From assembly GCF_003334255.1 (NCBI RefSeq), contig NZ_QOWU01000193.1: a stretch of 750 bases of DNA; one strand, written 5' to 3'. Position numbers and translations under genes: made by a program. This stretch comes from Escherichia coli (GTDB lineage Bacteria; Pseudomonadota; Gammaproteobacteria; Enterobacterales; Enterobacteriaceae). Positions 110 to 268 of the stretch are shown here, piece by piece (position 1 is the stretch's first letter; each line of letters opens with the position of its first letter). A model generated the notes under the pieces. It was given only the letters and a program-made list of their open reading frames with translations. It was not told the DNA's origin and did not search any database.

Positions 110-129
110 CACAGCCTTACCCGTAACCG

Positions 130-148
130 GTTTTTTACATTAAAAAAC
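130..148. repeat. Perfect AT-rich inverted repeat, 8-bp arms with 3-nt spacer (GTTTTTTA-CAT-TAAAAAAC); function unknown, candidate operator or promoter-associated site
   Basis: Seen in sequence: 130-137 'gtttttta' is the exact reverse complement of 141-148 'taaaaaac'; flanking bases (129 g / 149 g) do not extend the symmetry. Immediately adjacent to the palindrome AACCGGTT (125-132). Lies about 32 nt upstream of the - strand ORF start. Confidence is for the repeat itself, not for any function. Confidence 0.85.
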
Positions 149-268
149 GACGCTGAAAATTCAACCGTCAGTCCGGAGACGACCGTTCGGGTTATCACAG
201 AGTGCCTGAGACAGTGTCCTGCCGGAGGTCACTTCAGGGACTCTGCGTATTTTTTACGACGTGGCTAT

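Follow-up and report, generated by a model that had tools for sequence, protein, structure and literature searches.

The 750-nucleotide (nt) stretch of Escherichia coli DNA analyzed here (the window) belongs to an SRL/CP4-type genomic island and is matched exactly over all 750 bases in the chromosome of E. coli strain 503025. It holds two divergent genes. On the minus strand, positions 1–98 are the 5′ part of a 66-residue open reading frame (the small ORF), annotated in the exact-match genome, with its ATG start codon at 98–96 and the Shine-Dalgarno sequence GAGGAGGGAG at 110–101. It extends past the left window edge, and in full length (L001:11898–12098, minus strand) its translation contains zinc-ribbon CxxC...CxxC motifs followed by a hydrophobic, transmembrane tail. 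On the plus strand, a YagK/YfjJ ("inovirus Gp2") gene of 189 residues starts with the ATG at 297 and runs through position 750 past the right window edge. The divergent intergenic region between both genes comprises 198 nt (99–296) and contains the element in question, i.e., the 8-3-8 inverted repeat GTTTTTTA-CAT-TAAAAAAC at 130–148.

In the window, the symmetry of this element is perfect. G130, T131–136 and A137 form the left arm, C138, A139 and T140 the loop, and T141, A142–147 and C148 the right arm, with seven of the eight stem pairs being A-T. An earlier interpretation made from the letters of the window, in the following called the sequence-only reading, had placed this palindrome about 32 nt upstream of the minus-strand start codon, and we measured 31 nt to the small-ORF start codon (98–96). 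The same reading had listed a self-complementary 8-mer, AACCGGTT, at 125–132 and a second 8-3-8 repeat, TCCGTATG-AAC-CATACGGA, at 269–287, and all three motifs were confirmed. The 8-mer, which overlaps the left arm of 130–148, is at chance level: two self-complementary 8-mers were found in the window compared with about 2.9 expected, and among distinct copies 13% have AACCGGTT disrupted by G129T. Of the dinucleotide shuffles of the window, 1.2% contained a perfect 8-bp inverted repeat around a 3-nt loop, or 10.6% when loops of 0–10 nt were admitted, and two perfect 8-bp repeats with a 3-nt loop occurred in 0.03%. On the window data alone, the palindrome pair looks non-random. This statistic overstates the case, however, because the perfect form is a minority allele among homologous copies and the shared geometry is limited to the same allele class.

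Related copies are present in 3,635 of 5,426 complete E. coli genomes (about two thirds), typically two per genome with a maximum of six. We collected further homologues from diverged E. coli paralogues, from contigs with diverged small-ORF alleles and from a metagenome scan anchored on the flanks. The anchor pattern of the scan was loose and left the element itself unconstrained; of the 120 stretches obtained, 57 proved to be true homologues, in which positions 122–130 (largely fixed) and 167–176 are invariant by construction of the search pattern. Nearly half of these metagenome copies (28 of 57, 49%) had the allele T6-A-CATT-A7. CT5-G-CATT-A7 was found in 10 copies (18%), the perfect T6/A6 allele in 9 (16%), an A8 allele in 5 (9%) and other alleles (A4/A5, T5) in the remaining 5 (9%). 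Among the approximately 7,300 places holding the intergenic region in complete E. coli genomes, 787 (~11%) had the perfect allele. Only this A6 count is usable, as the lack of matches to 30-nt megablast queries with the A7 and A8 alleles almost certainly reflects low-complexity masking and not a true zero.

The A-run varied between 4 and 8 among copies. T131C and A137G were each present in about 22% of distinct sequences, and a matching change at A147 or T141 never occurred; altogether, the symmetry was broken without compensation (T131C, A137G, A4/A5 alleles) in 26% of copies. The outer G-C pair was missing from 84–89% of copies. Seven of the nine perfect metagenome copies carry the CGACGC flank of the window and therefore represent one haplotype. 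The A6 allele is thus mostly tied to this flanking haplotype, with occasional independent slippage: lone A6 copies on the consensus background, together with one T5 copy, show that both runs slip independently. The 7-3-7 AT-only core TTTTTTA-CAT-TAAAAAA was unbroken in 42 of the 57 copies (74%), a retention that is no more than inheritance at an overall identity of about 92% is expected to give. A shorter core, TTTT-R-CATTAAA, had no variation in 53 distinct copies. Substitution diversity at 130–148 was 0.047 (0.088 with insertions and deletions, indels) and is close to the intergenic mean, i.e., 0.073 (0.097) for the whole spacer, with 0.16–0.19 at synonymous sites. The tract does not resemble a phase-variable homopolymer promoter tract, which would comprise about nine or more residues and be hypervariable within lineages; here, it has 4–8 residues and A7 dominates. 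The alignment of homologous regions, which had been proposed as a check of the sequence-only reading, hence shows that the palindrome is not conserved in related loci. Perfect symmetry at 130–148 is a minority state generated by slippage and not a selected one; it is incidental because it appears only when the slippage-prone A-run is six residues long and matches the T6 run.

We compared the hairpin potential of both inverted repeats. Folded as DNA, 130–148 had a z-value of −1.5 (−4.5 kcal/mol), and equally good folds were obtained for 16 of 200 shuffles, i.e., its stability is not beyond that given by composition. The CT5-G allele folded with −1.3 kcal/mol only (z = +0.4). A covariance-model search against Rfam on both strands (E ≤ 10) had zero matches. 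An intrinsic terminator at 130–148 was considered and rejected; no terminator-like site was found in the window, and the stem is almost entirely A-T paired. In contrast, the repeat at 269–287 on the plus strand folded with z = −6.3 as DNA and z = −4.1 as RNA. Its arms are invariant in all E. coli copies (nucleotide diversity 0.002) and its loop has either 3 nt (AAC) or 8 nt (AACGAAAC), so that it behaves like a hairpin under selection. Its right arm lies over the Shine-Dalgarno sequence GGAG (285–288), and an outer stem, 260–264 with 295–299, lies over the AUG (297–299) of the YagK-like gene. The hairpin 260–299 is probably a translational control element.

In six other genera, the leaders of YagK-like orthologues all pair the Shine-Dalgarno segment with an upstream anti-Shine-Dalgarno stretch, whose sequence depends on the lineage; z-values of these folds range from +0.3 to −3.2. 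RNAalifold over the genera found no consensus for the Shine-Dalgarno hairpin because the left-arm partner differs among lineages, and the leaders were then folded one by one. All nine perfect copies of 130–148 have the 3-nt loop at 269–287, and the 8-nt loop is present in 12 of 54 scorable copies. The 8-3-8 geometry shared by both repeats is confined to the allele class of the window. The proposed pairing of either divergent gene with a symmetric element of the same geometry is therefore not supported, as 130–148 is allele-specific and uncompensated, unlike 269–287. Upstream of K-12 yagK (L012:6960–7010, minus strand), we noted a short hairpin, ACGGTCT-GCTAT-AGACCGT, about 25 nt from the start codon, a hint that members of the YagK family may generally have leader hairpins.

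The 189-residue orthologues share 62–69% sequence identity and are found in Enterobacter, Serratia, Klebsiella, Salmonella, Pectobacterium and Rouxiella. Their loci have the gene order YagK-like, AlpA, zinc-ribbon pair, and the genes upstream are unrelated. In the alignment, upstream homology of these loci to the window stops at about 246. The only upstream sequence common to the genera is GTATTTTTT(A)AC (window 247–257), TATGAAC and the Shine-Dalgarno hairpin; the 130–148 element, the small ORF and region 163–245 are absent 5′ of the orthologues in all six genera. The upstream regions of K-12 yagK and yfjJ have nothing resembling 130–148 either, and the small-ORF family is practically restricted to E. 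coli/Shigella. By these comparisons, small ORF, 130–148 element and 163–245 are specific to the E. coli/Shigella lineage. Because cross-genus homology stops at about 246, we assign 130–148 to the module of the small ORF and not to that of the YagK-like gene. The sequence-only reading had put the element into a leader or promoter region, and it indeed sits near the small ORF, within the 198 nt that form the control region of both divergent genes.

We propose, with a probability of about 0.45, that the block at 130–148 is AT-rich core DNA shared by two promoter-like sites lying back to back, whose spacers both contain the A-run. We infer both the promoter function and any effect of A-run length on promoter spacing. 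On the plus strand, the left arm and loop would supply a −35-like TTTACA, on the minus strand, the loop and right arm would supply a −10-like TAATGT, and the A-run would sit in the spacer of both candidate promoters. We scanned for σ70 promoters with a position weight matrix whose weights derive from classic compilations. For either strand of the intergenic region, the σ70-like site with the highest score overlaps the block. The candidate for the small ORF on the minus strand (137–164) reads TTGAAT (164–159)-N16-TAATGT (142–137), and its transcripts would start at ~130 with a ~30-nt leader. It scored 8.9 in the window (A6) and 10.1 in the A7 allele (spacer 17), the top score of either strand. 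The plus-strand candidate (134–160) reads TTTACA (134–139)-N15-GAAAAT (155–160), with a predicted start at about 167; in the window it scored 6.8, or 7.2 with N16 and AAAATT (156–161), and 8.8 in the A7 allele (spacer 16).

As the A-run lies in both spacers, the A6, A7 and A8 alleles would give spacers of 15, 16 and 17 nt on the plus strand and of 16, 17 and 18 nt on the minus strand, respectively. The commonest allele, A7 (49% of copies), has near-optimal spacers (16 on plus, 17 on minus) and the best scores. Moreover, plus-strand TTTACA-16-GAAAAT in the A7 allele passes the promoter scan rule with 9/12 matches. The block lies between the Shine-Dalgarno sequence and start of the small ORF (110–96) and a plus-strand RNA from about 163, and promoters would therefore be needed in both directions. 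The implied starts fit these surroundings: a start at about 130 on the minus strand gives a 30-nt leader, and about 167 on the plus strand is the first base of the inner H1 stem of the RNA.

This RNA is predicted at 163–245 on the plus strand by folding and by retention of G·U pairs. It comprises two conserved hairpins, H1 (163–193) and H2 (198–245), and a T-run. H2 folds with −30 kcal/mol (z = −4.9) and is followed by CGTA and a T6 run. Among 35 distinct copies, 12 variable pair-columns keep G·U on the plus strand compared with 2 on the minus strand, and 98–99% versus 91–93% of cells are paired, respectively (binomial p ~0.007, for a structure that was itself derived on the plus strand). Rfam had no match for 163–245. 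These data point to a structured plus-strand leader or small RNA, which the pattern of variation suggests to be under selection; if so, a promoter would be needed at or upstream of about 163. The HS and SEC470 alleles have 24 nt of the H2 apex deleted and retain a shorter terminator-like hairpin.

A number of results weigh against promoters at 130–148. The best scores of 8.9–10.1 do not exceed background (shuffles: median 9.0, 95th percentile 12.3); since the median best score of shuffles is 9.0, the minus-strand candidate is not significant. The scan rule (both hexamers at least 4/6, spacer 16–18) finds no promoter in the window, where the plus-strand spacer is 15, and the minus-strand −10 hexamer TAATGT has 3/6 consensus matches. 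Each candidate is degraded in about one quarter of copies, by GAAAAT to GGGAAT (~26% of copies), TAATGT to TAATGC (A137G alleles) and TTGAAT to CTGAAT, and the ORFs there can still be intact. Furthermore, a plus-strand promoter-like site that looks stronger, CTGACA-17-AATAAT (10/12), is located about 200 nt upstream with no terminator between, and could therefore feed the plus-strand leader instead. We found no transcription start data for the island; no matching sequence was present in the supplements of PMC7132871 (Shigella M90T transcription start sites) or in the accessible part of those of PMC10469882 (EDL933 Cappable-seq), and OI-43 of EDL933 is entirely without the module. The promoter picture is coherent but weak.

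The CTGACA-17-AATAAT site itself, also found in L008, lies within the small ORF in antisense orientation, at L001:11929–11957, about 45–70 nt left of the first window position. Antisense transcription started there could cross the small ORF and enter the leader of the YagK-like gene.

Among other explanations, the leading one, itself rather unlikely, is neutral intergenic DNA in which a T-run and an A-run are symmetric by chance in one allele, with both genes transcribed from elsewhere. Promoter scores at shuffle level, a diversity resembling the rest of the spacer, the tolerated indel polymorphism and uncompensated substitutions and the alternative plus-strand site upstream all agree with it, as does a weakly constrained small ORF (ratio of non-synonymous to synonymous polymorphism, pN/pS, 0.64; in about one third of copies, the ORF is disrupted or its start altered). 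It does not account well for the TTTT-R-CATTAAA core without change in 53 distinct copies, or for a substitution diversity of 0.047 well below the synonymous level, although the whole spacer is likewise low. Also, the small-ORF promoter must lie in 99–245, where the block is the best candidate. We regard it as clearly less probable still that 130–148 is a bent-DNA or nucleoid-protein site (H-NS/Hha, Fis, or integration host factor, IHF), where in-phase T6 and A6 tracts would curve the DNA and recruit a silencer or modulate promoters. The centres of both tracts are indeed about 11 bp apart, i.e., about one helical turn, no other 40-nt stretch within the first 400 nt has a GC content as low as that of the block (35%), and a Hha paralogue of the island is encoded nearby; but the AT dip spans only about 35 nt within DNA of 48–57% (~52%) GC and is not the extended AT-rich DNA typical for H-NS. 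Moreover, the phasing is freely changed by A-run indels, and comparison by eye with the high-affinity consensus sequences for IHF and H-NS gave no match. A palindromic operator for a dimeric island regulator, for example the AlpA/Vis-like helix-turn-helix protein or a zinc-ribbon protein, is improbable. Such a role would fit an element that overlaps both candidate promoters, keeps its 7-3-7 core in most copies and has small DNA-binding proteins encoded close by, yet two-fold symmetric half-sites are not kept across homologues, as the symmetry-breaking changes in 26% of copies are never compensated. Homopolymer half-sites have a low information content, the core is retained no more often than overall identity predicts, and the AlpA-containing orthologous modules of other genera are without the element.

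It is very improbable that 130–148 serves the adjacent YagK/YfjJ protein with its HUH fold as an origin, nick site or DNA-unwinding element, with an easily melted hairpin presenting the nick site as at the double-strand origins of rolling-circle replicons. In favour, this protein combines an HUH nickase fold with HUH and YxxK motifs that do not vary, the AT-only arms would melt easily, and an 8-mer of the left arm region (131–138), TTTTTTAC, is also part of the T-run motif conserved across seven genera (250–257). The minus strand at the element reads TTTTTTAATGT, which is loosely like TTCTTTAATAG, the nick region of Ff phage gpII. However, the element is absent from the orthologous loci of six genera together with the small ORF and 163–245, its hairpin is no more stable than shuffles, changes in arms and geometry are tolerated, and no replication role is known for the YagK/YfjJ family. 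We rejected a duplicated promoter or nick site based on the TTTTTTAC repeat, since a 750-nt sequence should contain about four pairs of repeated 8-mers by chance. The YagK-like protein may well have a nick site elsewhere; a location at 130–148 is argued against by the fact that this element does not travel with the Rep-like gene. Marginally more remote is a variant in which the HUH-fold protein would recognize, nick or unwind DNA at a second, lineage-specific site, namely the AT palindrome with its TTTTTTAC, paired with TTTTTTAC at 250–257. If true, SRL/CP4-type islands would carry a rolling-circle-type initiation module, with two sites bracketing the structured region 163–245. To an RNA hairpin affecting stability or translation, in the 5′ leader of the small-ORF mRNA or in a plus-strand leader, we give the least credence. 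With transcription starting further upstream, it would sit about 31 nt upstream of the small-ORF AUG, but it folds as RNA with only −3.7 or −3.2 kcal/mol (z = −0.9 or −0.35) and makes no contact with a Shine-Dalgarno sequence. T131C creates a C·A mismatch, and the CT5-G allele barely folds. We rejected this reading after the folding test.

In conclusion, 130–148 is most likely an ordinary AT-rich piece of the divergent control region and not a dedicated symmetric site or replication origin. Of the sequence-only reading, the observation of the palindrome and its location in a control region stand, whereas matched symmetric elements for each gene and a part in an origin or nick region do not, and a bent-DNA or nucleoid-protein site has little basis given the short AT dip. 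The element itself is of little importance, its symmetry being accidental and set by homopolymer length. What is gained is a negative result: an operator or origin reading is removed and two look-alike palindromes turn out to be different kinds of thing. Worth following nearby are an uncharacterized HUH-fold protein encoded on islands that about two thirds of complete E. coli genomes carry, the structured leader that occludes its Shine-Dalgarno sequence, and a T-run motif conserved across genera.

The YagK-like protein matched the Pfam families YagK_YfjJ_C (4.8e-48) and REP_ORF2-G2P (3.3e-5). Its AlphaFold2 model had a predicted local distance difference test score of 86, and Foldseek by itself gave no significant match. 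H94-Y95-H96 and Y168-x-x-K171 are invariant in 49 E. coli alleles and nearly invariant even in comparison with K-12 YagK and YfjJ. We conclude that the YagK/YfjJ neighbour has an HUH-nickase-like fold; the Rep-like protein named in the sequence-only reading is thus borne out by the REP_ORF2-G2P match and by the HUH and YxxK motifs, and an HUH endonuclease gene does adjoin the element. The gene is intact in 63 of 66 copies (pN/pS 0.29). In the literature on YagK, YfjJ and "inovirus Gp2" we found annotation-level mentions only and no function or regulatory data. Seven genera share the conserved T-run motif, GTATTTTTTAC at 247–257 on the plus strand, upstream of the YagK-like gene. It lies 40–50 nt 5′ of the start codon, and apart from the Shine-Dalgarno hairpin no other non-coding block is conserved. 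Possible roles are those of a −10-like TATTTT, of a protein site or of a site nicked by the HUH-fold protein. The small ORF is intact in 47 of 73 copies. It is fast-evolving; the second CxxC motif is lost in some alleles, and about one third of copies have a premature stop or an altered start. It is either a weakly constrained gene or a gene in decay.

Annotated surroundings of the window include genes for an Ag43 adhesin, a YeeP-like GTPase, an AlpA/Vis-like helix-turn-helix protein, the Hha paralogue and an "inovirus Gp2 family" protein, as well as two zinc-ribbon genes, IS66 and the fec operon. The published ORF table of the Shigella SRL pathogenicity island lists a YfjJ-like, Hha and Vis-like trio in a layout matching that of the window's island (PMC6980539). 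Near-identical island segments were also found in a whole-genome shotgun contig of Paenibacillus tengchongensis (L004, 683 nt, coverage 0.59) and in a contig of a Collinsella metagenome-assembled genome (L005). These copies in Firmicutes and Actinobacteria assemblies are almost certainly assembly contamination. A scan of genome contigs with the YagK-like protein gave just two short contigs, both contaminant-like. In E. coli Ec387, a 76-nt leader fragment (L011:2501–2576; window ~222–297, 91% identical) is located 3′ of a different Gp2-type gene and 5′ of zinc-ribbon genes, with no YagK-like gene following. It appears to be a deletion or recombination remnant.

Three known systems can be compared with the locus. 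In Ff phage, the plus origin lies directly upstream of gene II. The double-strand origins of HUH-Rep rolling-circle replicons, i.e., those of pMV158 and Ff gpII, resemble the locus in that a short inverted repeat is found near an HUH-fold gene. Unlike at these origins, the element at 130–148 does not travel with the gene in other genera and its geometry is polymorphic; its arms are AT-only, and their stability is at shuffle level. Leader hairpins that sequester a Shine-Dalgarno sequence are represented here by 269–287, to which 130–148 is alike in that both are 8-3-8 inverted repeats in the allele of the window. The former has invariant arms, a variable loop, z-values of −4 to −6, overlap with a Shine-Dalgarno sequence and equivalents in six genera, whereas 130–148 has none of these. 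Finally, hifA and hifB of Haemophilus influenzae have overlapping divergent σ70 promoters with a repeat tract in their shared spacer. Unlike there, the tract at 130–148 has 4–8 A residues, well below lengths of high-frequency phase variation, its alleles look lineage-stable, and the promoters are candidates with scores not above those of shuffles. The likeness is one of arrangement: two back-to-back promoter-like sites share an AT-rich block with a variable tract between both hexamer pairs, and because the tract lies in both spacers, a one-base change in its length would alter both together.
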